Positions 4,677 through 22,697 of a stretch of 23,469 nt of DNA are shown here, piece after piece. The position numbers and the translations under genes were made by a program. Numbering within the stretch: the first letter of the stretch is position 1; each line of letters starts with the position of its first letter. Source of the DNA: a virus; UHGV virus genome UHGV-0341897, one strand, 5' to 3'. Below the pieces are notes generated by a model that did no database searches, was not told the DNA's origin, and worked only from the letters and a program-made list of their open reading frames with translations.

Positions 4677-5011
4677 ACACTTTTCATTAATAGCATGAGA
4701 TAACGCTCAATTCTTTATTTTCCGGGAGTGTGTAACTTCATATCCACCTCTCACTCACAGCGTACGTTATTGGCGAAAAATTTAGTTAAGCCATTGATAG
4801 TTTGTGAAAACACGCATGATTTAAAATCCCTTTGCCGTGAAGGGGCTGATAGGTACAGGCACTTGTTTTTGCCCTCTAAAACGGTTATCAAAACCAAAAA
4901 ACATACATTGATAATCAATAGGTTAGGGGAAAGATAAAAGCCAGTTGATTTACAATAAAATTATAGGATTATTTTTATTTATCATGCGGTTGTATATGAA
5001 CCATCTAACTA

Positions 5012-5176
5012 CTGCTGCGCCATATGGGCTGGACTGAAGCCGCAGACCTGATTGTTAAAGGTATGGAAGGCGCAATCAACGCGAAGACCGTAACCTATGA
5101 CTTCGAACGTCTGATGGAAGGCGCTAAACTGCTGAAATGTTCAGAGTTTGGTGACGCGATCATCAAGAACATGTAA
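5012..5176 (+). pseudogene. icd: Isocitrate dehydrogenase 3'-terminal 165-bp segment (icdC-like att homology), not joined to an icd body
   Basis: Translation [54 protein letters not shown] matches the Icd C-terminus. An in-frame TAA lies immediately upstream, and the DNA further upstream is AT-rich and unrelated. Confidence 0.85.
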
Positions 5177-5199
5177 TCTCTACATGTGTTAAATATTGA

Positions 5200-5230
5200 A
5201 ACGGGCGTATAACACGCCCGTTGTTTTATG
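5200..5230 (+). terminator. Rho-independent terminator after the icd 3' segment
   Basis: Perfect 9-bp stem AACGGGCGT / ACGCCCGTT with loop ATAAC, followed by TTGTTTTAT. Confidence 0.65.
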
Positions 5231-5242
5231 ATGATGTAAAAT

Positions 5243-5279
5243 CTTCCCCAAAACTTTCCCCAAAACCCTTCCCCAAAAC
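5243..5279 (+). repeat. Three tandem 12-bp direct repeats (C/T)TTCCCCAAAAC between the att homology and int; candidate integrase arm-type binding sites
   Basis: Direct reading gives cttccccaaaac, tttccccaaaac, c, cttccccaaaac. An imperfect inverted copy (gttaggggaaag) lies near 4922-4935 on the other side of the icd segment. Confidence 0.55.
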
Positions 5280-5289
5280 TGGCTATTTT

Positions 5290-6432
5290 CTATGCTGTTT
5301 TGATATCTACGATAATCCAGTCTTTACCACGATCATCATTGTATCGGTCGGTCATTTTTCTGGATTTATGGCCTAACAACTTTTGCGTATCCAGACCCTG
5401 TTCCCGATATAACCGTTCTGACAGAGATCGCTGCTCATGAAATGTGGGCGCAGTTCCTTGCTCCCATTTTATGCCACATTTTTCCCTGGCCTTTTTAAAA
5501 GCCGTTGTCAGAGTATTCGCAGAAACCTGGTCTCCTCTGTTTGCTTGAGAGGTTGTGTGACGGTAATGGACCAGATATTTACTAACAACAGCATCCCTGC
5601 ACTGAGATATAACTTCACGAAGGGTAATATTCAGAGCATCGCATTTCAGGTTAAGCGGAATAGCAAGTTTTGAACCGGTTTTTTCCTGAGTAATGTGCAA
5701 CATGTCGTCCCAGATATCAGAGAATTTCAAATTGCAGATATCGCCTAAACGTTGTCCAGTGACAAGAGCAAGTAGCATCCCACATTTTAAATAGGGCTGC
5801 CGTCTGCTTACGCTGTCAAATATTGCCTGCCATTCGGGCAGTGATAATCTTTGGCGGTTTACTCGATTTCGCGGTTGTTTTGTTGCCTGCGCTGGGTTAA
5901 ATCCTGGCGGAACATGTCCTGCGTGTTGTGCTTCTTTGAAGACGTCGATTAACACCATTCTCACGACTTGCGCCATCCTGTTATGACCTTCAGCCTTTAC
6001 AGCATCAATTATTTCGGCAATATCAAGTGCGGTAATATCCTTGAGGTGTTGCATTCCACAATGCTCACGGAAAAGACGAATGGGTTTGCCTTTTTGCCGA
6101 TAGGAGTTGGGTCTTAGTTCATTATGTTGCAGCCTGTCCTCCTGGATAGAAATATATTTATCAAGCCATTCTGTCACCGTAATGTCTGAGCGCCTGCCTT
6201 TCATTCTTTCCAGACGCTCATTGACGCTTAATATTTGTCGGGTACGTTGTTCAGCAATAATGATATTTGCTTCAGTAGCAACTTGTTTTGCTTCATTCTC
6301 ATCAGTTCCTAAGCTATGAAAACGACCGGATAGTGGATGTTTGTATTGCCAATATACCTTTCCGGTTCGCTTATCTAATTTGCAATATAAATTGGGTATA
6401 GAGATTTTGTGAGATCGGGGTCTAGCAGCCAT
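5290..6432 (-). CDS. int: Tyrosine recombinase, lambda-family integrase
   Basis: 380-aa ORF whose C-terminus (HEQRSLSERLY ... LLGHKS ... TDRYNDDRGKDW) parallels the lambda Int catalytic region. It is adjacent to the att homology and overlaps xis. Confidence 0.95.
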   Translation of the reverse strand: MAARPRSHKISIPNLYCKLDKRTGKVYWQYKHPLSGRFHSLGTDENEAKQVATEANIIIAEQRTRQILSVNERLERMKGRRSDITVTEWLDKYISIQEDRLQHNELRPNSYRQKGKPIRLFREHCGMQHLKDITALDIAEIIDAVKAEGHNRMAQVVRMVLIDVFKEAQHAGHVPPGFNPAQATKQPRNRVNRQRLSLPEWQAIFDSVSRRQPYLKCGMLLALVTGQRLGDICNLKFSDIWDDMLHITQEKTGSKLAIPLNLKCDALNITLREVISQCRDAVVSKYLVHYRHTTSQANRGDQVSANTLTTAFKKAREKCGIKWEQGTAPTFHEQRSLSERLYREQGLDTQKLLGHKSRKMTDRYNDDRGKDWIIVDIKTA

Positions 6433-6658
6433 CAGCGATTATCCGTTGGAGTTTTGGGTTTGCGTTTATTGGGAGTTGCGGTTCTGCAAGCGTTCCTACA
6501 AAACGGGAATTTCGGTCAATCATCCAGTAGCGACCAACTTTTATAGCGGGTGGGGCCATCATTTTCCCTTGCGCGTATTTTTTCAGAACTCGCTCACTTG
6601 GTGCTAAGTCCCCAAATTCTTCTTTAGCCCAGTCCTGTAAAGTGATTAGTCGAGACAT
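6422..6658 (-). CDS. xis: Excisionase (lambda Xis-type)
   Basis: 78-aa ORF upstream of int and overlapping it by 11 bp. Starts MSRLITLQDWAKEE, similar to lambda Xis MYLTLQEW. Confidence 0.8.
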   Translation of the reverse strand: MSRLITLQDWAKEEFGDLAPSERVLKKYAQGKMMAPPAIKVGRYWMIDRNSRFVGTLAEPQLPINANPKLQRIIADGC

Positions 6659-6797
6659 TTGTCCTCCTCTTAGCTGCTGAGGGAGTTTGTGACCGATATA
6701 TCTGACATGATATTAAGCTCATGGCAGGTACATCTCTTGACTGGTCATAGAGATAAATTTAATGCTGAGAAATGCAGTATTGAATTTATCAATTTTT

Positions 6798-7037
6798 CTA
6801 TTTCCTGCGTATGGCACGTAACTTCTTAATGTGTTCTGCCGTTTCGATCTCTTCTGCTATCCGATCTGCATCAGCTTTATTCACAGGTTCAAAGTCATGA
6901 TTAAAGCGGAACATGCTGGCGATACATGTTCTGCCTTTTCGGATGTAGTGAACTTTGTTGTGGGTAGAACGCAGGATTTTGCAGGGAGTGCCGTGGTGGT
7001 CGACGTACCAGGTGTTAGGAAAAATGATTCTGAACAT
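6798..7037 (-). CDS. Hypothetical early-left (b2/ea-region) protein
   Basis: 79-aa ORF co-oriented with the int-to-exo gene string. No family recognised. Confidence 0.45.
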   Translation of the reverse strand: MFRIIFPNTWYVDHHGTPCKILRSTHNKVHYIRKGRTCIASMFRFNHDFEPVNKADADRIAEEIETAEHIKKLRAIRRK

Positions 7038-7084
7038 TTTTACACCTCAGTTGGACGATGTTGAAATTTGCTGCTTTGAGGCCA

Positions 7085-7303
7085 TCACAGTCCCCATTGT
7101 TTGTTCTTAAGTTCGATCTCCTCCTGGCAACTTGCACAAGTCCGACAACCCTGAACGGCCAGGCGTCTTCGTTCATCTATCGGATCGCCACACTCACAAC
7201 AATGAGTGGCAGATATAGCCTGGTGGTTCAGGCGGCGCATTTTTATTGCTGTGTTGCGCTGTAATTCTTCAATTTCTGATGCTGAATCAATGATGTCTGC
7301 CAT
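7085..7303 (-). CDS. DksA/TraR-family C4 zinc-finger protein
   Basis: 72-aa ORF with C-C-E-C ... C-R-T-C-A-S-C spacing typical of TraR/DksA-type zinc fingers common in lambdoid early regions. Confidence 0.65.
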   Translation of the reverse strand: MADIIDSASEIEELQRNTAIKMRRLNHQAISATHCCECGDPIDERRRLAVQGCRTCASCQEEIELKNKQWGL

Positions 7304-7353
7304 CTTTCATTAATCCCTGAATTGTTGGTTAATACGCTTGAGGGTGAATGCGA

Positions 7354-7379
7354 ATAATAAAAAAGGAGCCTGTAGCTCC
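7354..7379 (-). terminator. Rho-independent terminator downstream of the 93-aa ORF
   Basis: Minus strand reads GGAGC-tacag-GCTCC followed by TTTTTTATTATT. Confidence 0.5.
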
Positions 7380-7401
7380 ATGATGATTTTGTTTTTCATG
7401 T

Positions 7402-7683
7402 TCACCGTTCCTTAAAGACGCCGTTTAACATGCCGATCGCCAGGCTTAAATGAGTCGGTGTGAATCCCATCAGCGTTACCGTTTCGCGGTGCTTCTTCAG
7501 TACGCTACGGCAAATGTCATCGACGTTTTTATCCGGAAACTGCTGTCTGGCTTTTTTGATTTCATAATTAGCCTGACGGGCAATACTGCGAAGGGCGTTT
7601 TCTTGCTGAGGTGTCATTGAACAAGTCCCATGTCGGCAAGCATAAGCACACAGAATATGAAGCCCGCTGCCAGAAAAATGCAT
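7402..7683 (-). CDS. Hypothetical early-left protein (possibly starting at internal Met23)
   Basis: 93-aa ORF in the gene string between exo and xis. No family recognised. Confidence 0.45.
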   Translation of the reverse strand: MHFSGSGLHILCAYACRHGTCSMTPQQENALRSIARQANYEIKKARQQFPDKNVDDICRSVLKKHRETVTLMGFTPTHLSLAIGMLNGVFKER

Positions 7684-7693
7684 TCAGTGGTTG

Positions 7694-7885
7694 TCATACC
7701 TGGTCTCTCTCATCTGCTTCTGCTTTCGCCACCATCATTTCCAGCTTTTGTGAAAGGGATGTGGCTAACGTATGAAATTCTTCGTCTGTTTCTACTGGTA
7801 TTGGCACAAACCTGACTCCAATTTGAGCGAGGCTATGTGCCATCTCGATACTCGTTCTTAACTCAACGGGAGATGCTTTGTGCAT
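7694..7885 (-). CDS. Hypothetical early-left protein
   Basis: 63-aa acidic ORF co-oriented with the operon. Confidence 0.4.
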   Translation of the reverse strand: MHKASPVELRTSIEMAHSLAQIGVRFVPIPVETDEEFHTLATSLSQKLEMMVAKAEADERDQV

Positions 7886-8046
7886 ACAGCCCCTCGTTTA
7901 TTATTTATCTCCTCAGCCAGCCGCTGGGCTTTCAGTGGATTTTGGATAACAGAAAGGCCGGGAAATACCCAGCCTCGCTTTGTAACGGAGTAGACGAAAG
8001 TGATCGCGCCTACCCGGATATTATCGTGAGGATGCGTCATCGCCAT
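7858..8046 (-). CDS. Hypothetical early-left protein
   Basis: 62-aa ORF immediately downstream of exo in the same orientation, overlapping its neighbours. Confidence 0.35.
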
Positions 8047-8717
8047 TGCTCCCCAAATACAAAACCAATTTCAGCCAGTGCCTCGTCCATTTTTTCGATG
8101 AACTCCGGCACCATCTCGTCAAAACTCGCCATGTACTTTTCATCCCGCTCAACCACGACATAATGCAGTCCTTCACGCTTCATACGCGGGTCATAGTTGG
8201 CAAAGTACCAGGCATCTTTTCGCGTCACCCACATGCTGTACTGCACCTGGGCCATGTAAGCCGACTTTATGGCCTCGAAACCACCGAGCCGGAACTTCAT
8301 GAAATCCCGGGAGGTAAACGGGCATTTCAGCTCAAGGCCATTGCCGTCACTGCATAAACCATCGGGAGAGCAGGCGGTGCGCATACTTTCGTCGCGATAG
8401 ATGATCGGGGATTCAGTAACATTCACGCCGGAAGTGAATTCAAACAGGGTTCTGGCGTCGTTCTCGTACTGTTTTCCCCAGGCCAGCGCCTTAGCATTAA
8501 CTTCCGGAGCCACACCGGTGCAAACCTCAGCCAGCAGGGTGTGGAAGTAGGACATTTTCATGTCAGGCCACTTCTTTCCTGAGCGGGGCTTTGCTATCAC
8601 GTTGTGAACTTCTGAAGCGGTGATGACGCCGAGCCGTAATTTGTGCCATGCATCATCCCCCTGTTCGACAGCTCTCACGTCGATCCCGGTACGCTGCAGG
8701 ATAATGTCCGGTATCAT
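8037..8717 (-). CDS. exo: Lambda exonuclease (Red-alpha)
   Basis: 226-aa [42 protein letters not shown]..., essentially the lambda Exo sequence as I recall it. Its start overlaps the bet stop (ATGA). Confidence 0.97.
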
Positions 8718-9499
8718 GCTGCCGCCTTCTGCTCAGTGGCTTTCTGTTTCAGGAATCCAAGAGCTTTCACTGCTTCGGCCTGTGTCAGTTCTGACGATGC
8801 GCGAATGTCGCGGCGAAATATCTGGGAACAGAGCGGCAATAAGTCGTCATCCCATGTTTTATCCAGGGCGATCAGCAGAGTGTTAATCTCCTGCATGGTT
8901 TCATCGTTAACCGGAGTGATGTCGCGTTCTGGCTGACGTTCTGCAGTGTATGCAGTATTTTCGACAATGCGCTCGGCTTCATCCTTGTCATAGATACCAG
9001 CAAATCCGAAGGCGAGACGGGCACACTGAATCATGGCTTTATGCCGTAACATCCGTTTGGGATGCGACTGCCACGGGCCGGTGATTTCTCTGCCTTCGCG
9101 GGTTTTGAATGGTTCGCGGCGGCATTCATCCATCCACTCGGTAACGCAGATCGGATGATTACGGTCCTTGCGGTAAATCCGGCATGTACAGGATTCATTG
9201 TCCTGCTCAAAGTCCATGCCATCAAACTGCTGGTTTTCATTGATGATGCGGGACCAGCCATCAACGCCCACCACCGGAACGATGCCGTTCTGCTTATCAG
9301 GGAAGGCGTAAATTTCTTTCGTCCACGGATTAAGGCCGTACTGGTTGGCGACGATCAACAATGCGATGAACTGCGCATCGCTGGCATCGCCTTTAAATGC
9401 TGTCTGGCGAAGAGTGGTGATCAGTTCCTGTGGGTCGACAGAATCCATGCCGACACGTTCAGCCAGCTTCCCTGCCAGCGTTGCGAGTGCTGTACTCAT
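8714..9499 (-). CDS. bet: Lambda Bet single-strand annealing protein (Red-beta)
   Basis: 261-aa [62 protein letters not shown]..., matching lambda Bet from memory. Confidence 0.97.
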
Positions 9500-9504
9500 C
9501 CGTT

Positions 9505-9801
9505 TTATACCTCTGAATCAATATCAACCTGATGGTGAGCAATGGTTTCAACCATGTACCGGATGTGTTCTGCCATGCGCTCCTGAAACTCAACATCGTC
9601 ATCAAACGCACGGGTAATGGCTTTTTTGCTGGCCCCGTGGCGTTGCAAATGATCGATGCAGAGTGATTCAAACAGGTGCTGGGACAGACCCTTTTCCATG
9701 TCGTCTGCCAGTTCTGCCTCTTTCTCTTCACGGGCGATCTGCTGGTAGTGACGTGCCCAGCTCTGAGCCTCAAGACGATCCTGAATGTAATAAGCGTTCA
9801 T
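9505..9801 (-). CDS. gam: Gam, RecBCD inhibitor (98-aa GamS-length form)
   Basis: [42 protein letters not shown]... matches lambda GamS. An in-frame TAA lies 19 codons upstream of the ATG, so no GamL-type extension is possible. Confidence 0.95.
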
Positions 9802-9876
9802 GGCTGAACTCCTGAAAATGGCTGTGAAAATATCGCCCGCGAAATGCCCGGCTGATTAGGAAAACAGGAAAGGGGA

Positions 9877-10287
9877 TTAGTGATTGAGGCCGTTACCGCG
9901 TCCGTCGAGAAAAACTTCCACGAGCAAATCACGGGTATAAGTGCGCTCGATGCCGCGATGCAGATAAAGCCGTCCGCGTAAATTAGCTGATGCAGTCCAG
10001 GTACCATCTTTGTGTTTGACCAGCATTCCTGGCATGACCGCACCTCGATTAACGGTCTGCGTTCCGTAATGTTGATGAACCATAAAAACTCCTGCCCGTA
10101 AGCTGGGCTGCTGAACATATAGAGACTTCTGCGCGTATTCAGGCGGTGGATGGCCGCCGGTTGTCATAACTAAGCCGCCTCGTTGAAGCGACTGAGGTAT
10201 GAGGTGTTGAGTTGATTTCAGCTGGTCACACCGACGTTCACGCGTCCGCTTCACCCCTCGCACTCCCCGGAGCCTGCTGAAATTCAA
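9877..10287 (-). CDS. Hypothetical first gene of the leftward operon, with an arginine-rich N-terminal segment
   Basis: ORF track start is a TTG. N-terminus [10 protein letters not shown] resembles the lambda N arginine-rich motif, but the rest is unlike N. An internal ATG at 10167 would give a 96-aa product. Coding status is uncertain. Confidence 0.4.
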
Positions 10288-10353
10288 GCTGCGGATCTAA
10301 GCGGTCATCGCAACGGTGAATCAGGTGATTGCCGTATCGTTGTGTTGTTGCGA

Positions 10354-10405
10354 CATGGTGATAATAGCTATTGCTATTGACTATATCAATACTTATTGCT
10401 ATTGA
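10354..10405 (-). promoter_or_regulatory. Putative pL promoter with overlapping operator-like repeats (oL)
   Basis: Minus strand reads TTGATA, a 17-nt spacer, then TATTAT. The 17-bp inverted repeat TATTGACTATATCAATA and two copies of ATTGCTATTGA overlap it. Confidence 0.45.
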
Positions 10406-10529
10406 TTGATGTGTTTTGATATTAACTGTTTGATAGCAAAAAGAATTAATTTTGTGACTTGCATCGCATAGCGATAACTGAAGCGAGGTCGTGGTGGTTT
10501 TTTGAACGGTTTATGTGATGAGGGGAGGC

Positions 10530-10557
10530 AAAAGAAAACCCGGCACGACGGCCGGGG
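10530..10557 (-). terminator. Rho-independent terminator 3' of the 287-aa gene
   Basis: Minus strand reads CCCGGCC-gtcgt-GCCGGG followed by TTTTCTTTT, directly after the stop codon at 10561-10563. Confidence 0.55.
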
Positions 10558-10560
10558 AAA

Positions 10561-11424
10561 TCATTTCGCATCTACAATAAATAACCTGTTTATCTGGCCT
10601 TTTTTAACAGTAGCCTTTGCGGTTATAGTGAATACTGCAGATGGATCACCTTTGGTTGATATATATGCACTAAGAGCTCTAATATACGGGTTATTCTTCT
10701 TTCCTGCAGCTGGATCGCTAATTTCAGCAGTGATTCTCTTTTTTGAGTCATCACCATCTAAAATTATTTTAGCTGTCATATTTTGTGCATCAAATTCTGT
10801 AAGAAAAGCACGATACTCACGAAGACCGAGAACTTCATCATCATCAAGCCTATCAATTTCAGCTTTATCTCTCTCGTTAACTTTTAGAAGGCAGCCGTCA
10901 ACATTTGTTGCAACACTTATCTGATCGCAAGTATTACCAATAGGTGATACTGCCTGCCTTACAGAGGGGCGAAGCTCTACAGCCATTCGGTCAATCAAAG
11001 AGATCAACTTATCAATGGTTCCAGCATCCTTGTTTCCTAGTGCCTCTATGGCCTTTTCAAGTGACTGCTGCAAAGCTTTCATTTCATCTTTCTTGTTAGA
11101 ATTTCTCGCAAAAATATATTGTAGTATTGCGCCAAGTATAGTTGCGGCGATCCCCGAGAACAACTGGTTCTGAGTGGCGAAGTTAAGAACTGCTTCAAGA
11201 GTAAAGCAGTTAGCTTTTGCTTCGCGTGCGTAAACCTTAACTTCCTGATAATTAATGTATTTACTATATTTTTGTGTAACAGAGAAAGAAGCTGCTGTTG
11301 AGAGAACTTTAGAAAAACCCTTTAGGGATTCTCCTAGGCAGTTCAAATCTATTTCATGATTTAAAGCATCTTTTCCGTCATACCTAAGAGAGATTTTTAT
11401 ATCCTGTAAAGCGTCACAATCCAT
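10561..11424 (-). CDS. Uncharacterised 287-aa protein at the rexAB-equivalent position downstream of cI; candidate exclusion or abortive-infection protein
   Basis: Long AT-rich ORF 66 bp downstream of cI and co-oriented with it, ending at its own terminator before oL/pL. Contains one hydrophobic helix ([19 protein letters not shown]) followed by a charged coiled-coil-like stretch. No family recognised. Confidence 0.75.
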
Positions 11425-11490
11425 AAATCGCTCTCGTCTAATTCTAATTAAATTTACTATCCCCTAAACGACTCATCAGCACAGTACTGA

Positions 11491-12183
11491 TTATCCATGT
11501 TTCCTGTACGTCTGGGGCATGCTCCCAATAACCTTACCGAAGATGAACACCCGGTTCATCTCGTCTTTCTCGATCGGGTCCCACGGTGAGTAGCTCTTGT
11601 TATCAGAGATAACCAGCAGCTTATCCTTCATCATTTGCAGGCGCTTTACATGGGCGGTGTCGTCGTACAGAAACGCATAGATGCCATCACCGTCGAAAGA
11701 TTTAACCGTGATATCAACGAACAGAAGATCACCAGGTTCAATCGTTCCTGACATGCTGTCACCGCGTACGTTAATGATGCGGATATTTTCTGCCTTCCTA
11801 CCATCGAACATGTGACGAGCATCGTCAAACGAGTACTCAACCGAGCGTAGAACTTCTACAAACTCACGGTTGATGACTCCCGGCCCGGCACTCACTTCTA
11901 TATCAAGAACGTCAATCTTGAAGTATTTGGGATGGTTGGCAGTAGGCTTCCCTAATTGTTGACCGTCATTTCTCATCGGGCCTATGCCTGATGAGAGCCA
12001 CTCTGTTCGAACACCCAATGCATTAGCTATTTCAACAATTTTTGTTGAGCCGCGCGCGTTGCCGCTTGTCAGTCTCCAGATTGTGGGTTGAGCTACGCCA
12101 GACGCCTTTGCAAGAGCGCCTTGAGACATTCCAGATTGTTCCATCGCTAGGTTTAAGCGATCAGCAAGAGTTTCTTTTTTCAT
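11491..12183 (-). CDS. cI: Prophage repressor, cI-type (HTH-XRE plus LexA/S24-like autopeptidase domain)
   Basis: N-terminal helix-turn-helix (QGALAKASGVAQPTIWRL) and C-terminal S24 peptidase signatures (GDSM ... VKR). Start placed at the ATG for MKKETL (12183); the ORF track begins at an upstream TTG (12219). Divergent from cro. Confidence 0.9.
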   Translation of the reverse strand: MKKETLADRLNLAMEQSGMSQGALAKASGVAQPTIWRLTSGNARGSTKIVEIANALGVRTEWLSSGIGPMRNDGQQLGKPTANHPKYFKIDVLDIEVSAGPGVINREFVEVLRSVEYSFDDARHMFDGRKAENIRIINVRGDSMSGTIEPGDLLFVDITVKSFDGDGIYAFLYDDTAHVKRLQMMKDKLLVISDNKSYSPWDPIEKDEMNRVFIFGKVIGSMPQTYRKHG

Positions 12184-12293
12184 AAGTTTTAATTTATACG
12201 CTTGCGTATTGATGGTCAAAACACGTTTTGCTATTGCTGTGATTAATACGCATTGCTATTATTTATTCATTGTAATACCAATAGGAATTAATA
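12184..12293. promoter_or_regulatory. oR/pR/pRM-type divergent control region between cI and cro
   Basis: Contains the 14-bp inverted repeat ATACGCTTGCGTAT, two TTGCTATT-core repeats shared with the oL region, and a plus-strand TTGCTG, 17-nt spacer, TATTAT promoter about 30 bp upstream of cro. Confidence 0.55.
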
Positions 12294-12521
12294 ATGACAA
12301 ATCAAACCATTCAACTCGCAATCAGTATTACAGGTAGTCAAAAACGACTGGCAGATCTATGCGGTGTAGCCCAGCCCACTGTTTGGCGTTGGCTACACGG
12401 TGGCGGAATTGATGCCCGCTATGTAATGAAAATTGTCTCAGCCACTGGTGGAAAGATTAAACCAGCAGATATTCGTCCCGACCTCGCACCATTGTTTAAC
12501 GCGAGTAATTCTGCCGCCTAA
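12294..12521 (+). CDS. cro: Cro-like HTH regulator (YdaS-type)
   Basis: 75-aa ORF divergent from cI with HTH segment QKRLADLCGVAQPTVWRWL and an AGGAA Shine-Dalgarno. Confidence 0.8.
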   Translation: MTNQTIQLAISITGSQKRLADLCGVAQPTVWRWLHGGGIDARYVMKIVSATGGKIKPADIRPDLAPLFNASNSAA

Positions 12522-12545
12522 TCTGCGGCGTTAACTGATAAGGCA

Positions 12546-13091
12546 ATGACTATGCAACCACTTACATACCAACAGACTAGCGGATTTAGCCCGACTGCGG
12601 TGATAAATCGTTCTCAAACAAAACAGGCGCCAGGCCACGAAAAAATCCGTGATGCCGTTCGCGCCTGGTCGGCTGCAGATAATCAGGATGTTGTTGCCGC
12701 ACTCATTGTGAATGAGTATCGGGAGCAGGGCGGCGGCACCATCGATTTCCCTGATGATGTCAGCCGTGCACGCCAGAAGCTGTTCCGCTTCCTCGATAAC
12801 AAATTCGATTCTGAAAAATACCGAAATAACGTGCGTGAACTGACCCCGGCAATTCTGGCGGTACTACCGCTGGAATATCGCGGCCACCTGGTTGAGCAGG
12901 ATAGCTTCATGGCTCGGCTGGCTGAAATGGAAAAGGAACTCAGTGAGGCAAAACAGGCTGTCATTCTCAACGCACCACGCCACCAGAAACTGAAGGAGAT
13001 GAGTGAAGGCATTGTGTCGATGTTTCGTGTGGACCCGGATCTGGCTGGTCCACTGATGGCGATGGTCACCACCATGCTGGGGGCAATATGA
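12546..13091 (+). CDS. CII-position regulator (possibly YdaT-family)
   Basis: 181-aa ORF between cro and O. Assigned by position only; YdaT-like identity is a guess from memory. Confidence 0.5.
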   Translation: MTMQPLTYQQTSGFSPTAVINRSQTKQAPGHEKIRDAVRAWSAADNQDVVAALIVNEYREQGGGTIDFPDDVSRARQKLFRFLDNKFDSEKYRNNVRELTPAILAVLPLEYRGHLVEQDSFMARLAEMEKELSEAKQAVILNAPRHQKLKEMSEGIVSMFRVDPDLAGPLMAMVTTMLGAI

Positions 13092-13177
13092 CAGGTTCGG
13101 AAATGGCGAAAGCCGGTCTGCGCGAACAGAACCGACTTTCAGGTGCAAATCGTAACACACTCATTGCGGGAGGAATT

Positions 13178-14107
13178 ATGGCAAACACTGCTGAGATATT
13201 CAATTTTCCAGTGCCGGATGTGGCACAAAAGGAGCCGCGCGTGGCAGATCTCGATGATGGTTATACGCGCATTGCAAATGAGTTGCTGGAAGCTGTGATG
13301 CTGGCCGGATTAACACAGCACCAGCTTCTGGTCTTCCTGGCTGTCATGCGCAAAACATATGGCTTTAATAAAAAACTGGATTGGGTGAGCAACGAGCAAC
13401 TTTCCGAGTTGACCGGGATATTGCCGCACAAGTGTTCTGCTGCAAAAAGTGTTCTGATAAAGCGTGGGATTTTTATTCAGAGCGGGCGGAATATCGGCAT
13501 TAATAATGTGGTCAGTGAATGGTCAACATTACCCGAATCAGGTAAGAAAAATAAAGTTTACCTGAAAGAGGTAAATTTACCTGAATCAGGTAAGAAAAGT
13601 TTACCCAAATCAGGTAAAGACGTTTACCCGAATCAGGTAAACACAAAAGACAAACTAACAAAAGACAATATAAAACCTTTTTCGTCCGAGAATTCTGGCG
13701 AATCCTCTGACCAGCCAGAAAACGATCTTCCTGTGGTGAAACCGGATGCTGCAATTCAGAGCGGCAGCAAGTGGGGGACAGCAGAAGACCTGACCGCCGC
13801 AGAGTGGATGTTTGACATGGTGAAGACCATCGCGCCATCAGCCAGAAAACCGAATTTTGCAGGGTGGGCTAACGATATCCGCCTGATGCGTGAACGTGAC
13901 GGACGTAACCACCGCGACATGTGTGTACTGTTCCGCTGGGCATGCCAGGACAACTTCTGGTCCGGTAACGTGCTAAGTCCGGCCAAACTCCGCGACAAGT
14001 GGACCCAACTCGAAATCAACCGTAACAAGCAACAGGCTGGCGTGACAGCCGGAAAATCAAAACTCGACCTGACAAACACTGACTGGATTTATGGGGTGGA
14101 TTTATGA
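13178..14107 (+). CDS. O: Replication initiator, lambda O-like (origin-binding)
   Basis: Start at MANTAEIFNFPV with a GGGAGG Shine-Dalgarno; the ORF track extends to 13088. Has the lambda O N-terminal motif VADLDDGY, internal iterons, and a C-terminus overlapping P. Confidence 0.9.
   Translation: MANTAEIFNFPVPDVAQKEPRVADLDDGYTRIANELLEAVMLAGLTQHQLLVFLAVMRKTYGFNKKLDWVSNEQLSELTGILPHKCSAAKSVLIKRGIFIQSGRNIGINNVVSEWSTLPESGKKNKVYLKEVNLPESGKKSLPKSGKDVYPNQVNTKDKLTKDNIKPFSSENSGESSDQPENDLPVVKPDAAIQSGSKWGTAEDLTAAEWMFDMVKTIAPSARKPNFAGWANDIRLMRERDGRNHRDMCVLFRWACQDNFWSGNVLSPAKLRDKWTQLEINRNKQQAGVTAGKSKLDLTNTDWIYGVDL
13529..13641 (+). repeat. Replication origin iterons: five copies of about 19 bp (TTTACC-N7-GGTAA) inside O, followed by an AT-rich stretch
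   Basis: Direct reading gives ttacccgaatcaggtaag, tttacctgaaagaggtaaa, tttacctgaatcaggtaag, tttacccaaatcaggtaaa, tttacccgaatcaggtaaa. The AT-rich tract cacaaaagacaaactaacaaaagacaatataaaacc follows at 13642-13680. Confidence 0.8.
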
Positions 14108-15104: not shown

Positions 15105-15171
15105 TGAAACAGGTGAGTTGAGTTCAAACTGTAGTACAATTCTCTCCAGTTTGAACAGGAAAGAATATGCT

Positions 15172-15504
15172 ATGAACCCTTATATTTATCTTGGTGGTGC
15201 AATACTTGCAGAGGTCATTGGTACAACCTTAATGAAGTTTTCAGAAGGTTTTACACGGTTATGGCCATCTGTTGGTACAATTATTTGTTATTGTGCATCA
15301 TTCTGGTTATTAGCTCAGACGCTGGCTTATATACCTACAGGGATTGCTTATGCTATCTGGTCAGGAGTCGGTATTGTCCTGATTAGCATACTATCATGGG
15401 GATTTTTCGGCCAACGGTTGGACCTGCCAGCCATTATAGGCATGATGTTGATTTGTGCCGGTGTGTTGGTTATTAATTTATTGTCACGAAGCACACCACA
15501 TTAA
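15172..15504 (+). CDS. emrE: Small multidrug resistance efflux transporter EmrE
   Basis: 110-aa product from Met19 of the ORF track entry (MNPYIYLGGAILAEVIGTTLMKFSEGF...), with four hydrophobic helices. Matches E. coli EmrE, known from DLP12. Confidence 0.95.
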   Translation: MNPYIYLGGAILAEVIGTTLMKFSEGFTRLWPSVGTIICYCASFWLLAQTLAYIPTGIAYAIWSGVGIVLISILSWGFFGQRLDLPAIIGMMLICAGVLVINLLSRSTPH

Positions 15505-15759
15505 AAATAATTTATTTTTAAACGACTAAAATATGGAGGTTCGTATATTTGTATGGGCCTCGTTTTATGCTTTTTGTTAATGTCTTTAGTTTTTATTCAT
15601 TCTTTTGAACTTTCAAGATTATGGTGTAAGAAAATTGCAATACGATTATTGTTGTATATTCAAGATAATGTGACCTTAATTGTCTTTTTAAATAAAAATT
15701 AAACAAAAATCATATCTCACCACTAAGGTTTATAAAAGCATACTTTAGCAGGTGTCACC

Positions 15760-17286
15760 ATGAAAAAAGCCATAGCATATATGCGATTTTCATCACCAGG
15801 TCAGATGTCTGGTGATTCATTAAACCGCCAGAGAAGGCTTATTACTGAATGGCTAAAGGTAAATAGTGATTATTACCTTGATACCGTAACGTATGAAGAT
15901 TTGGGGTTAAGCGCATTCAATGGAAAGCATGCACAATCAGGAGCTTTTTCGGAATTTTTAGATGCTATAGAACATGGTTACATATTGCCAGGGACTACAT
16001 TGTTAGTTGAAAGTCTGGACAGACTTTCAAGAGAAAAAGTCGGTGAAGCGATTGAGCGTCTGAAATTGATTTTGAATCACGGTATTGATGTTATAACTCT
16101 TTGCGATAATACAGTCTATAATATAGACTCATTGAATGAGCCATATTCATTAATAAAAGCCATACTTATAGCACAAAGGGCAAATGAAGAAAGCGAGATA
16201 AAGTCAAGTCGGGTTAAATTATCATGGAAGAAAAAACGGCAGGATGCACTGGAATCAGGCACGATTATGACGGCGTCTTGTCCGAGATGGCTCTCATTGG
16301 ATGACAAAAGAACAGCTTTTATTCCAGACCCCGACAGGGTGAAAACGATTGAGCTAATTTTTAAACTCAGGATGGAAAGGCGATCATTGAATGCAATAGC
16401 TAAGTATTTAAATGATCATGCTGTAAAAAATTTTTCAGGAAAAGAAAGTGCATGGGGGCCTTCTGTAATTGAAAAATTATTAGCGAATAAAGCTCTGATA
16501 GGTATATGCGTACCTTCATATCGTGCAAGAGGGAAAGGGATAAGTGAAATCGCTGGCTATTATCCCAGAGTCATATCAGATGATTTGTTTTACGCTGTAC
16601 AGGAAATTCGGTTGGCACCTTTTGGTATTAGCAATAGTAGCAAGAATCCTATGCTAATAAATCTACTTCGAACAGTTATGAAGTGTGAGGCTTGTGGTAA
16701 TACCATGATTGTTCATGCGGTATCTGGACGTTTGCATGGCTATTATGTTTGTCCGATGAGAAGATTACATCGATGTGACAGGCCATCAATAAAAAGAGAT
16801 TTGGTTGATTATAATATCATTAATGAATTGCTTTTTAATTGTAGCAAAATTCAACCAGTTGAAAACAAGAAAGATGCTAATGAAACTTTAGAGTTAAAAA
16901 TTATTGAGCTTCAGATGAAAATTAATAATTTAATCGTTGCATTGTCTGTCGCGCCTGAAGTTACCGCTATAGCAGAGAAAATAAGACTATTAGATAAGGA
17001 ATTACGAAGGGCTTCGGTATCATTAAAAACTTTGAAGAGTAAAGGGGTGAGTTCACTTGGTGATTTTCATGCTATTGATTTAACTAGTAAAAATGGGCGA
17101 GAGCTATGTCGTACACTTGCCTATAAAATATTCGAAAAAATTATAATTAATACAGATAATAAAACCTGTGATATCTATTTTATGAATGGCATTGTTTTTA
17201 AACACTATCCTTTAATGAAAGTAATATCCGCCCAGCAGGCGATAAGCACTCTTAAATATATGGTTGATGGTGAGATTTATTTTTGA
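15760..17286 (+). CDS. ybcK: Large serine recombinase (resolvase/invertase-type catalytic domain; YbcK-like)
   Basis: 508-aa ORF with the N-terminal serine-recombinase motif AYMRFSSPGQ and a cysteine cluster (C-E-A-C ... C-P-M ... C-D) typical of the zinc-ribbon region. Flanked by AT-rich non-coding DNA. Confidence 0.85.
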   Translation: MKKAIAYMRFSSPGQMSGDSLNRQRRLITEWLKVNSDYYLDTVTYEDLGLSAFNGKHAQSGAFSEFLDAIEHGYILPGTTLLVESLDRLSREKVGEAIERLKLILNHGIDVITLCDNTVYNIDSLNEPYSLIKAILIAQRANEESEIKSSRVKLSWKKKRQDALESGTIMTASCPRWLSLDDKRTAFIPDPDRVKTIELIFKLRMERRSLNAIAKYLNDHAVKNFSGKESAWGPSVIEKLLANKALIGICVPSYRARGKGISEIAGYYPRVISDDLFYAVQEIRLAPFGISNSSKNPMLINLLRTVMKCEACGNTMIVHAVSGRLHGYYVCPMRRLHRCDRPSIKRDLVDYNIINELLFNCSKIQPVENKKDANETLELKIIELQMKINNLIVALSVAPEVTAIAEKIRLLDKELRRASVSLKTLKSKGVSSLGDFHAIDLTSKNGRELCRTLAYKIFEKIIINTDNKTCDIYFMNGIVFKHYPLMKVISAQQAISTLKYMVDGEIYF

Positions 17287-17610
17287 GTAATAATCACTTT
17301 TTCAACCGTGCTATGGTATGAAAGTAAAGTAACTACTATGATATTAACTATCTTGAACGAAGCGCCCTGAGCTATAGTTTTACTATAGGCACTGCCACTG
17401 GATGTTGGCATTCTCGCTCTAGTAGCTCAACAATACCCAATCACAAAACAATTCACTGATAACAAACTTTGTGCACGTGCTTAGTTATGGCGAACAGGTG
17501 ATGTTAACCTCCTGCCAGAATGCCACTCCACTTCATTAAGTATCTGAGCACCGAGAGGCTGGTCACGCCCCCATTAAAAATAATTTCTTTTGAATCGAGT
17601 GAAATAGGTT

Positions 17611-17638
17611 AGCCCGCATAAGTGCGGGCTGCTTTTTA
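17611..17638 (+). terminator. Rho-independent terminator (plus-strand sense) abutting the esterase stop codon
   Basis: Stem AGCCCGCA-taag-TGCGGGCT followed by GCTTTTTAC. Confidence 0.45.
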
Positions 17639-18679
17639 CAGGTCAGCGTTTGTTTTTTGTTGTTGGGTAGCGGTTTTTATGGGGGTTCCCAGGTTTTTAG
17701 TAAACCACTCAACAACTCTGTTTATAATAATTGGCTGATACCATGTATTATCACCATGCTCAGCCCCTTCTACCAGAACGTACTCAGCGTTATCGCCGTT
17801 CTTCTTCAACATCCTGAATAGTTTGGCGCTTTGCTCAGGTGAAACCAGAGTGTCTTTGCTACCATGCATAATAAGAAATGGGGGTTTTACTCCTTTCATA
17901 TGTCCGATTGGACTGGCGTTTAGCGCTTTTTCTTTTGACGCTGTGATGGGGGCTCCCGCAAAATTTCTGAATGCAGGGCCATTGATCATTAAGGCTTCGG
18001 TTACGGCAGGAGAGCGATGAACCTCCTGCACTGATTCAGGGAACCCCTCGCCAATATTCAACAAGTCAGAAATCCCATAAAGTGTGGCAACTGCCTGAAC
18101 ATCTGAGGATTGCTGAAGAAAGTCACCTTTATCAAAGGTTTTGTCACCATTTGTAGTTCCCATCATCTGAGCAAGCCATCCACCGGCAGAGTCACCCAGA
18201 ACTCCGATTCTTTGAGGATCAATCCCATAATTGCTGGCATGCTCTCTCAGGTAACGTATTGCAGCTTTTCCATCCTCAACTGGTGCTGGAAATGTATCAG
18301 GAATTGTTCTGTATTCTACAGCGGCCACAACAAAACCAGCTTCTGCCAGAGCCATTCTCATTTCAATAAATTTGTCATGTTCAGAAGACATGAATCCGCC
18401 GCCGGGATAATAAATAATGGCTGGTTTTAAATCATTTGTTCGCGGGACAAGAACTGACATGTGAAGCTGTCTGACAGAACGAGTTCCTTTTATCTGGGAA
18501 TAAACAACATCACCAATGAGATCGACCTGGTTTCTGGTCGGTGAAACACTAATGATATCTGCACCCGGGGTGTAACCAGGAAGATTAGTCTGGACAGGTG
18601 TTGCACAACTCCCGACCGACATGGCCATTGACATACCATACAATAGTGTTGCAGATGATAATATCTTGTTAATTTTCAT
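17636..18679 (-). CDS. Secreted alpha/beta-hydrolase esterase/lipase (Aes/HSL family), probable lipoprotein
   Basis: 347-aa ORF with a signal peptide ending in the lipobox-like SVGSC, the oxyanion motif YYPGGGF, and the catalytic-serine motif GDSAGG. Confidence 0.8.
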   Translation of the reverse strand: MKINKILSSATLLYGMSMAMSVGSCATPVQTNLPGYTPGADIISVSPTRNQVDLIGDVVYSQIKGTRSVRQLHMSVLVPRTNDLKPAIIYYPGGGFMSSEHDKFIEMRMALAEAGFVVAAVEYRTIPDTFPAPVEDGKAAIRYLREHASNYGIDPQRIGVLGDSAGGWLAQMMGTTNGDKTFDKGDFLQQSSDVQAVATLYGISDLLNIGEGFPESVQEVHRSPAVTEALMINGPAFRNFAGAPITASKEKALNASPIGHMKGVKPPFLIMHGSKDTLVSPEQSAKLFRMLKKNGDNAEYVLVEGAEHGDNTWYQPIIINRVVEWFTKNLGTPIKTATQQQKTNADL

Positions 18680-19126
18680 GTTTTACATGCCTTGACTTAT
18701 CGGATGAAATTCTCTTACTGAATTTAACGGCAGTTTAATAGCCGTACAACTCGTGGTAGCCAGGGAAATATCCCAGTCGTGGTTAAGGTTGTACTTGACG
18801 GCTATTATTTCAACAATGCTTAAAGTGAGAGCTTAAGGTTATGCGTATGTTTTACAGTCCGAGTAGATTCTGACCAATAGCTTCTTTGTATAATTCTGTC
18901 AGAAATAAATCTTGGCTTGCATGAAGTTTGAGACCTTATCTTGTTTGATTATGAATAATCAATTCGCCATAATTGTATCACCGGAGCCTGAACAACTCCG
19001 GTGACTTCTGCGCTAAACGGGGACGTTTATGCGCACACACAATCCAAACTCTCTTCTCCCTTCACAGATGCAGAAATGCACCTGCGTTTTTTTGCATCCA
19101 GCGTCTGACCTCTGTGGAGGTGAAGC

Positions 19127-20531: not shown

Positions 20532-20616
20532 AGTCAGAGATAACAATCGACTAATACTGTTTTGTTGATTTTTGCTTGTAATTGGCGTTCTGGCCTAATT
20601 TTTGTGGAGTAAGTTG

Positions 20617-21000
20617 ATGCGTGATGTTCAGATGGTTCTTGAGCGTTGGGGGGCGTGGGCAGCTAATAATCATGAAGATGTGACCTGGTCGTCCATTGCT
20701 GCCGGTTTTAAGGGATTAATTCCTTCAAAAGTAAAATCTCGCCCGCAATGTTGTGACGATGACGCGATGATCATTTGCGGGTGCATGGCCCGTCTGAAAA
20801 AGAACAACAGCGATTTACACGATTTATTAGTAGATTATTATGTATGTGGTATGACATTCATGTCACTGGCAAGTAAGCATTGCTGCTCGGATGGTTATAT
20901 CGGGAAAAGGTTACAGAAGGCTGAGGGCATAATTGAAGGGATGTTAATGGCATTAGATATCCGGTTAGATATGGATATCGTTGCTAATAATTCTAATTGA
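20617..21000 (+). CDS. quuD: Late-gene antiterminator Q (QuuD-like)
   Basis: 127-aa product from the ATG for [24 protein letters not shown]...; the ORF track starts at an upstream TTG. Matches DLP12 QuuD from memory. Confidence 0.9.
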
Positions 21001-21188: not shown

Positions 21189-22271
21189 TTAGAACTGATA
21201 AACCAGACCTACAGCGACGATGTCGTCGGTATCAATACCAGCTGTTTTGGTAAACTTACTATCGTCAATTAAGTTGATTTTGTAATCAACAAAAGTGGAC
21301 ATGTTTTTATTAAAGTAGTAAGTAGCACCGACATCGACATACTTGACTAAGTCTCGGTCACCATGAACACCAAGGTCTTTACCTTTTGACTGAAGGTAAG
21401 CAACAGATGGGCGCAGACCGAAGTCAAACTGATATTGTGCTACTGCTTCAAAGTTTTGTGCTTTGTTTGCAATATGGTTATTACCAAAAACGGTCATATT
21501 CTGAGTTTCAGAATATGTGGTAGCCAGATAGATATTGTTCGCATCATATTTCAGGCCTGCAGCCCATACTTCCGCATTTTTGCCGGAGGCATTGAATTTG
21601 CTCTTACCATAGGCGACCTGACCGTCAGTGCGATCTGATTTAGCATAGGTTGCACCCACGCCGAATCCTTCATACTCATAAGTAGTGGAGAAACCGAAAC
21701 CATCACCATTGGCTTCAGTTACGTCAGTGCGGTCATTTTTACCCTGATACTGAGCAGCAAAGTTCAGGCCATCGACCAGACCAAAGAAGTCGTTGTTACG
21801 ATAAGTTGCAACACCAGTAGTGCGACCAGTCATGAACACATCTGTTTGGGTCCAGGTATCACCACCGAATTCTGGCAGAACGTCAGTCCACGCACCGATG
21901 TCGTATGCTACACCGTAGTTACGGCCGTAATCGATTGAGCCGTAATCACCAAATTTCAGGCCTGCAAATGCAAGACGGGTTTTGTCTTTGGAAGAACCTT
22001 GAGATTCAGCACGGTTGCCTTTGAATTCATATTCCCACTGACCGAAACCAGTCAGTTGATCGTTGATTTGGGTTTCACCTTTGAAGCCAAGACGGGCATA
22101 AGTAGTATCACCATCATCTGCATCATTAGAGGAGAAGTAGTGCTTGGCATTAACTTTCCCGTATAGATCCAGCTTGTTACTGTCTTTATTATAAATTTCA
22201 GCTGCCTGAGCAGACATCGCCATCAGTACTGATGCAGCTACAGCAGAAATTGCCACTGTTAATTTTTTCAT
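21189..22271 (-). CDS. nmpC: Outer-membrane general porin (NmpC/OmpD, OmpC family), intact
   Basis: 360-aa product from the internal Met ([23 protein letters not shown] signal peptide, then AEIYNKD...). Ends ...VGLVYQF with the beta-barrel C-terminal Phe. Not interrupted by any insertion sequence. Confidence 0.9.
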
Positions 22272-22697
22272 TGTACGCCCTTTTTTTGAACTATTATTAA
22301 AAAATGATGTCACTGCGCGATAAATATTCATCTAATCAATGTGATTATTTCAAGATGTAAGTTTTAGTTTCTCATTTAATTTGTGAAGTAGATCTCTATT
22401 TTTATCTGAACCTTTTCTATCTAATCCTATTCATGGCTCTTGTTTGAACGAAAATAAATCTATTAGCTAATTTATATTAATGGCACTTATTTATAAGCGC
22501 TCTATAATTCTTTAGCTTAATTTAAACAAACTAAAAATAACATCGGAAATTATTCATTGGTTATTTGTTGAAGTTTTCTTATGTATTTGTGGTGGTGTTT
22601 TGAACACTCGGTGGCATTCTCACAAATATCATTTAGTAGTTTACGTACGTAAAAAATTGGTTATGCTGTTAAGAGTGGTTACTTCGTCACACAGCTT

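Follow-up and report, generated by a model that had tools for sequence, protein, structure and literature searches.

The viral genome UHGV-0341897, analyzed here as one stretch of 23,469 nt (the window), contains a lambdoid prophage of the Perceval/4A7 (Bievrevirus) type. We studied the beginning of its early-left operon, in which a leader of about 270 nt lies between the start of the pL transcript and the ATG of kil, and found that this leader holds two conserved structured RNAs, which we refer to as elements X and Y. Both are previously unannotated, and neither is in Rfam. In the explanation that we consider best, with a probability of about one half, the operon has no N gene, the leader is untranslated, and X antiterminates in cis in the manner of put, without being related to put in sequence. 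A sequence-only reading of the same DNA had left open whether antitermination here uses a divergent N-like protein or whether the module has been heavily remodeled. Our results support a remodeled module without conventional N or nut, a widespread and viable design in which a structured RNA comes first after pL.

Structure and distribution of element X

Element X (10309–10211, minus strand) is a 99-nt structured leader RNA, defined by alignment, covariation and folding, and is our candidate for an antiterminator analogous to put. It occupies about +46 to +144 of the pL transcript, of which it is the first structured conserved part. In stem-loop I (10303–10259), CGC/GCG closes a 9-bp core helix that pairs 10294–10285 with 10276–10267, and in stem-loop II (10258–10220) the core helix pairs 10249–10243 with 10236–10230, all on the minus strand. 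Our alignment comprises 14 distinct versions of X and is gap-free over the 99 nt; paired cells make up 97.9%, compared with 26–37% in slid-partner controls. Compensatory changes occur at five pairs (for example, G-C to A-U, or A-U to C-G to G-U), and the covariation score was reached by none of 500 shuffles. Single-sequence minimum free energy (MFE) folds of five divergent copies all gave the identical two stem-loops.

A covariance model of X (R2) scored 127 bits at the window copy and detected one copy per locus in 51 loci in addition to the window. The best other match within the window reached 13 bits at 268–365, outside the prophage. A diverged copy in contig L106 was found by tblastx/blastn against the fetched loci, and pattern scans added further variants in L136, L137, L148, L139 (Trabulsiella guamensis), L146 (Enterobacter intestinihominis), L140 (Scandinavium hiltneri) and L149. 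These extra lineages were few, coming from three enterobacterial species in the genome collection, two metagenome contigs and three viral contigs. Of 5426 complete Escherichia coli genomes, 2210 (~41%), O157:H7 strains included, carry the 5' part of the leader. Homology to phages that differ in immunity type starts at 10353 (about +1 to +3) and runs through kil. X is unannotated in the phage and genome records that we examined, is not in Rfam, and did not appear in the literature that we searched.

An operon without N could also be a decayed remnant, that is, part of a cryptic prophage from which N and nut were deleted and which no longer runs a normal early program. Two features of the window would fit such a history: its leader does not have the 5' and 3' flanks found in HK639-type phages, and a recombinase/esterase block is inserted in its pR operon. 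The distribution of the module makes decay very unlikely. At least 15 complete genomes that were deposited as those of isolated phages, including Perceval, 4A7, the PhiR phages and Turner, have the order pL-X-Y-kil, which implies plaque formation and normal induction for Perceval, 4A7 and the PhiR phages, and the module is conserved at 93–100% in about 2200 E. coli genomes. Real decay looks different, as in one E. coli genome (Res13-Lact-PEA14-20, locus 1607–2913) where an IS3-family element lies within X, past about alignment column 60, and represents a natural disruption.

Prophage lineages differ in the first ~35 nt of the leader, upstream of X. In MFE folds of the window, the leader opens with a 5'-terminal hairpin (10335–10355, minus strand) in which UGUCG pairs with CGAUA around a C/A-rich loop. 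By eye, an analogous 5' hairpin is present in L140 and in the common start of HK639/phi80-type leaders. The O157 anti-sRNAs AgvB and AsxR were considered in connection with the C/A-rich loop and were set aside, as they map downstream of pR' and not at the leader.

The arginine-rich reading frame

The sequence-only reading had pointed to an arginine-rich open reading frame (ORF) directly after pL as a possible source of an N-like protein. The frame does exist and extends for 136 codons on the minus strand, from a TTG at 10287 to a stop at 9877. Its status as a gene does not survive comparison with relatives, which indicates that the frame is an artefact in which leader RNA continues in frame into kil: its first 68 codons do not code, and only the last 68 are a gene. 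In near-identical relatives, an insertion of 5 nt (AH50), an insertion of 1 nt (PhiR30_1) or a deletion of 1 nt (Turner) splits the arginine-rich part from kil in each case. In the divergent homologues L106, L136, L140 and L146, two to five stop codons interrupt the frame, the first of them just five codons past the TTG.

The position of the frame within X accounts for its composition. The TTG at 10287 has no Shine-Dalgarno sequence and sits in the loop of stem-loop I, and the arginine-rich codons coincide with the G/A-rich strand GGGGAGUGCGAGGGGUGAAGCGGACGCGUGAACGUCGG of stem-loop II. The arginine-rich N-terminus is therefore only apparent, because G/A-rich strands of the folded element are read as codons. 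Among the open frames of at least 40 codons in the 23-kb window, six other 12-residue windows are comparably rich in arginine and lysine.

A divergent N-type protein initiated at the TTG, either as a short peptide or as a fusion to Kil, is accordingly the least probable explanation that we considered, and we regard it as extremely improbable. The arginine-rich stretch does resemble the lambda N motif QTRRRERRAEK, and the frame is open over its full length in this window. Set against this are the indels in close relatives and the stops in divergent ones, a start codon that lies without a Shine-Dalgarno sequence inside a conserved hairpin loop, comparable stretches in non-genic frames, and nucleotides that are constrained as base pairs. 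Neither the profile libraries nor the tblastn searches described below returned a relative of N or Nun.

RefSeq annotates the 68-aa Kil alone and leaves the leader blank. Proteins of 125–139 aa named "Kil" or "membrane carboxypeptidase" in OV696612 (Perceval), PV340555 (PhiR26_1) and OM475428/OM475430 are read-throughs of leader plus kil. As they contain the same fusion as the 136-codon ORF, these GenBank calls are probably wrong.

Searches for N, nut and put

No antitermination system of the N/nut or put kind was detected in the window. Hidden Markov model (HMM) libraries gave no match to N, and the N-terminal half of the 136-codon ORF had no match in Pfam, PHROG or NCBIfam. Using tblastn with lambda N, P22 gp24, phi21 N, HK022 Nun and the phi80 "N" as queries, we obtained only chance-level matches in the window. 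A scan for boxA (YGCTCTTTA-like, allowing at most one mismatch) found none within 9800–10420, and there is no boxB-type pentaloop hairpin, the loops of X being CGUGAA and AAUUUCAG, which are not GNRA-like. The earlier impression that neither boxA nor boxB is apparent was thus correct.

To search for put, we built a covariance model from HK022 putL and putR and six IMG/VR homologues. The model scored 98.9 bits on HK639 putL, 94 on HK022 putL and 48 on HK022 putR. Against the window, its best match was 7 bits (E=1.6) and lay outside the leader, and there was no weak match within the leader. Because the HMM, tblastn, boxA and put-model searches were all negative, we conclude that the window is without N/nut and without a put of the HK022 type.

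An Rfam scan of the window produced no match that reached its gathering score, and relaxing the limit to E=10 added only sub-threshold noise. The best sub-threshold match, the ALIL pseudoknot, was rejected, with 20.8 bits against a cut-off of 50 and a location on the wrong strand. The put RNA is not in Rfam, and Rfam misses the validated puts of HK022 and HK639, so its negative results on the leader say little.

Element X in the put slot

Many lambdoid pL leaders share their opening segment (...CATCGAAACGAAACATCGACAGCTGAGCGAAGTTAGCCAGCGGCG...) and differ in the cassette that comes next, for which there are several alternatives. In HK639, the cassette in this slot is annotated in GenBank as "putL-like antiterminator RNA". 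In six contigs (L106; L136/L148; L137/L139, from Trabulsiella; and L146, from Enterobacter), X replaces put, and its flanks there, 5' ...GCCAGCGGCGAAGTGGAG (...GGCGAAGTGGAG) and 3' TTTACCAGCAGCTCTTTGCGAGGGGCTGACGGTAAACAA, are identical to those of HK639 putL. The phages that carry X differ in their immunity region, with HK022-like operators in L136 and L148. The first genes after X also vary, encoding an HNH endonuclease, a phrog_1965 protein or small ORFs, and none of them is N-like. Two canonical intrinsic terminators (1918–1936 and 2219–2239) stand between X and kil, gam, recT and exo in L136, and two terminators were recognized by eye downstream of X in L106. HK639 put is present in a single copy, at pL; X is likewise found once per phage and at pL only, and searches of the pR operon by short-word blastn and with the unfiltered X covariance model turned up no further copy of either the leader or X.

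The function of the put RNAs has been described (PMC9378689). Like HK022 putL and putR and HK639 putL, X lies close to the promoter in a lambdoid phage without N, about 46 nt past the predicted start of the pL transcript, and consists of two adjacent stem-loops with no dedicated neighboring gene. In detailed shape, X differs from put. It measures about 99 nt compared with about 70 nt, it has a 17-nt G/A-rich strand in stem-loop II where put has a single junction G, and the conserved put motifs CGAACGGC, GUCGG and CAAU are absent from it. X therefore agrees with put in position and in its two stem-loops, whereas it does not conform to the sequence and structure consensus of put. The position of X also recalls that of lambda N/nut, as both come first after pL and OL in an early-left operon leading to gam, bet, exo, xis and int. 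Unlike lambda, the window has neither an N gene nor a conserved arginine-rich ORF, and it lacks both boxA and a boxB-type pentaloop hairpin.

Because X shares with put its slot, its position in the transcript, its copy number and an N-less setting with downstream terminators, we consider that it is probably an antiterminator. In the mechanism that we propose, X would emerge before any other structured part of the pL transcript and would fold into its two adjacent stem-loops. It would then act in cis, on the very RNA polymerase that transcribed it, as the HK022 and HK639 puts do, presumably by binding the polymerase, and read-through may depend on the beta' zinc-binding domain as it does for put. 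The polymerase so modified would resist terminators further down the leftward operon, with no phage protein needed. In relatives, X would help the polymerase past strong tL1-type terminators before kil, gam and recT/exo. In the window, the first such terminator would be the site at 7379–7365 (minus strand; GGAGCTACAGGCTCC then TTTTTTATTA), the first convincing intrinsic-terminator-like site in the pL operon. This site is intergenic, between the orf61 homologue and the TraR-like gene, and upstream of xis and int. By analogy, X might represent a second class of antiterminator RNA that acts in cis without protein, functionally analogous to put but with no sequence relationship to it, a tentative assignment that we place a little short of even odds.

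Several observations weigh against this proposal. In the window, kil, gam, bet and exo all follow pL without an intervening terminator, so that antitermination would be needed here, if at all, only for the distal genes, and the sole candidate terminator, at 7379–7365, is a pattern match only. The pR operon has terminator-like sites before Q and no copy of X, which means that X cannot explain early-right read-through. X has no detectable similarity to put in sequence or by covariance model, the window copy does not carry the 5' and 3' flanks common to HK639-type leaders, and the put-slot position is an argument by analogy. The covariation of X comes from about five independent lineages, and the structure was derived from those very sequences. 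A possible pseudoknot between loop I (10283–10276) and 10222–10215 never covaries and has one pair broken in L146. The whole leader is no more stable than shuffled sequence (z = -0.77 and -0.72).

Some of these points would suit a different role for X, and perhaps Y, as a structured 5' untranslated region that affects mRNA stability, provides an RNase site, sets the translation or timing of kil, or serves as a sponge or a precursor of a small RNA (sRNA), with no early terminators to overcome. The uninterrupted stretch from pL to exo in the window, the dissimilarity of X to put and the unexceptional stability of the whole leader are all compatible with this. In addition, kil genes are toxic and tightly controlled, and in the Rac prophage kilR is preceded by an annotated sRNA, KilS. 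The relatives argue otherwise. Varied genes, not kil, come after X there, so X does not travel with kil, and strong terminators then follow before kil, gam and recT. X also substitutes precisely for put between identical flanks, and conservation begins at +1 regardless of immunity type. We regard a structured 5' untranslated region with a role other than antitermination as somewhat unlikely.

X could alternatively be a nut-like loading site for a factor acting in trans, either host Nus factors or SuhB, as in rrn antitermination, or an unrecognized phage protein encoded elsewhere. Cassettes of the phi80/HK225 and ENT1 types, which fill the same slot, open with a hairpin and a boxA-like TGCTTTTTAACAA, and the shared 3' flank of HK639-type X leaders contains GCTCTTTG. 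The window leader, however, has no boxA-like sequence, no gene consistently adjoins X, and there is no unassigned early gene between pL and int in the window. This makes a loading site improbable, and a put-like RNA that acts by itself is still the reading that we prefer.

More generally, the start of the pL transcript looks like a swap slot, and if X is a second class of such RNA, the first 100–250 nt of lambdoid pL transcripts would take up alternative cassettes that modify the polymerase, namely put, X, and the phi80 and ENT1 types with their boxA. At least five alternative long structured cassettes were seen after the common 5' segment (those of phi80 L005, HK225 L006, ENT1 L007, L073 and L078, among others). 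The annotated "N" of phi80 (98 aa) has no arginine-rich motif and belongs to a PHROG of unknown function. Several different leader cassettes (L140, L149, L042, L043 and L078), among them X in Scandinavium, are followed by a conserved mini-ORF, AUG AAG CAC UAA (MKH-stop), whose Shine-Dalgarno sequence, GAGGAG, is strong.

Element Y and the pre-kil hairpin

Element Y (10142–10201, minus strand), which follows X in the leader, was defined by covariation and by its identity to sequences in phi80, HK225 and Enterobacter phages. It consists of two hairpins. The extended hairpin H1 pairs CAUA (10201–10198) with UAUG (10168–10165) at its base, followed by ACAACC, and hairpin H2 (10158–10142) has the form GGCGG-CCAUCCA-CCGCC and is invariant (GGCGGCCAUCCACCGCC). 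The H1 stem varies in sequence with many compensatory changes, showing covariation at five pairs. Y is 85–86% identical to phi80, HK225 and Enterobacter phages, with flanks that are much more diverged, and an exact 25-mer of Y was found in at least 119 IMG/VR contigs. Copies of Y were also located at L005 355–411, at L138 3708–3781 and in more than 100 IMG/VR loci (L017–L135).

The context of Y differs between phages. In nearly all contigs, Y comes directly after a strong intrinsic terminator that ends a variable upstream gene, and Y is 85–100% identical to the sequence after the first pL terminator in the tL1-type regions of phi80, HK225 and HK639. In the window family, Y is instead preceded directly by X rather than by a gene and terminator; in one contig (L026) it directly follows put. 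H2 was marked as a terminator by the HK639 annotators, and it has a U-tract in some variants but none in the window copy.

An AUG in the base of H1 (10167–10165) opens a frame, MTTGGHPPP..., that crosses H2 and is in frame with kil in the window. Its downstream length and frame are not conserved. One idea is that Y works by attenuation, in which a ribosome stalled on PPP would hold H2 open.

Between Y and kil, the leader sequence contains a small hairpin, GCCC-AGCUUAC-GGGC, and then the kil Shine-Dalgarno sequence AGGAG (10093–10089), together spanning 10089–10108 on the minus strand. Covarying counterparts of this hairpin were seen by eye before the next gene in phi80, HK225 and ENT1.

kil and gam

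The sequence-only reading had recognized no kil gene in this operon. This was mistaken, because residues 69–136 of the long ORF constitute a Kil of the KilR/phi80 type. The gene (9877–10083, minus strand) starts at an ATG at 10083 and encodes a 68-aa protein of the FtsZ-inhibitor family. Its product matches PHROG 294, "Kil protein for bacterial septation inhibition" (E=2.6e-38), and NCBIfam NF008465, "FtsZ inhibitor protein" (E=1.8e-17), with profile positions 1–70 on residues 1–68 and position 1 on M69 of the long ORF. A full-length alignment with Rac KilR, in which the start methionines coincide, shows 36% identity (BLASTP E=9e-13), and RefSeq contains the same 68-aa protein as WP_000233576/7, "phage encoded cell division inhibitor protein". 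The score against NF008465 is 63 bits and falls under the curated NCBIfam cut-off of 92, which indicates a related subfamily. On these alignments, kil encodes a member of the KilR/phi80-type family over its full length, and its product is predicted to inhibit division. Expression of Rac KilR is known to inhibit cell division (PMC12482147).

Like the genes for Rac KilR and phi80 Kil, kil in the window is immediately upstream of recombination genes, whereas lambda Kil is unrelated to it in sequence. The remark that no lambda-type kil, cIII or ral lies between pL and gam therefore still applies. In the Rac prophage of K-12 (L016 5406–5503), the sRNA KilS is annotated upstream of kilR on the same strand, which suggests that regulatory RNAs commonly precede KilR-type kil genes. 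By eye, KilS is unlike X or Y, and given this dissimilarity we rejected it as a homologue of the leader RNA.

The next gene, gam (9505–9801, minus strand), encodes 98 aa and is annotated as Gam in all relatives. Two in-frame stops just upstream restrict it to the short form, as had been noticed from the sequence.

Promoter, operators and gene setting

The promoter pL (10361–10389, minus strand) combines a -35 element TTGATA (10389–10384), a 17-nt spacer and a -10 element TATTAT (10366–10361). It agrees with the consensus at 10 of 12 positions and is the top promoter match within 5000–13200, so the good promoter proposed earlier is confirmed as a pattern. The predicted transcript start lies near 10356–10354. 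The overlap of this promoter with operator-like repeats also holds. OL (10363–10448) contains direct and inverted half-sites of the TATTGCTATTGA type, with copies at 10363–10380 and 10388–10405, and OR (12228–12292) carries the related half-sites TTGCTATTG and CAATAGG. Just upstream of OL/pL, an intrinsic terminator (10539–10556, minus strand; CCCGGCCGTCGTGCCGGG then TTTTCTTTTG) closes the transcript of cI and the DUF7946/DUF7947 gene.

On the minus strand, the order is cI (11491–12219), a gene in the rex position, OL/pL, the leader, kil and gam. After gam come bet, exo, homologues of orf60a, orf63 and orf61, the TraR-like gene, a DUF4222 gene, xis and int. For every early-left ORF, complete phages supplied annotated homologues. 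Between cI and OL, the rex position is occupied by a gene for a 287-aa DUF7946/DUF7947 protein (10561–11424, minus strand), which has a weak PADLOC match to the candidate defense protein PDC-S42 (E=1.5e-4). Relatives hold quite different genes there, namely genes for SIR2, ASCH or BamE-like lipoproteins, and the position thus looks like a slot for defense genes or morons.

The rightward operon comprises a YdaS-type cro, a YdaT-type cII, O, P, ren, an inserted block, nin genes and the gene for the Q antiterminator. The inserted block (15118–18680), between ren and ninB in the early-right operon, contains a QacE-like small ORF and a gene for a 508-aa large serine recombinase, with a 347-aa alpha/beta-hydrolase (BD-FAE/esterase) encoded on the opposite strand. 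Terminator-like hairpins at 15536–15561 and 17610–17631, before Q, would block pR transcripts there. Just downstream of the Q gene (20602–21000) and in the opposite orientation lies a gene for a 380-aa general porin (21189–22331, minus strand; Porin_1, E=2e-151) that resembles the prophage porins nmpC and Lc. An "M3-like RNA" is annotated in HK639 (L150 37910–37969), where it separates the cII-like gene from the genes for replication. The cro and cII of the window (75 and 181 aa) are of the same types as those of HK639, and since cII overlaps O in the window, there is no room for this RNA.

Implications

To our knowledge, put is the only well-characterized RNA that by itself makes E. coli RNA polymerase resistant to terminators, and it has been described in a handful of phages. 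The N-less design with a structured RNA first after pL is known in kind from HK022 and HK639. X itself does not fit the put model, is absent from Rfam and from the annotations that we examined, and has no description that we could find in the literature.

In practical terms, the analysis removes a false call of an "N-like" or over-long Kil gene and defines two unannotated conserved RNA elements. If X is an antiterminator, a second RNA of unrelated sequence in the put slot would make it possible to compare directly the ways in which nascent RNAs reprogram the polymerase. It would also explain how the recombination and excision genes are expressed in the very common N-less prophages of E. coli, including those of O157:H7.

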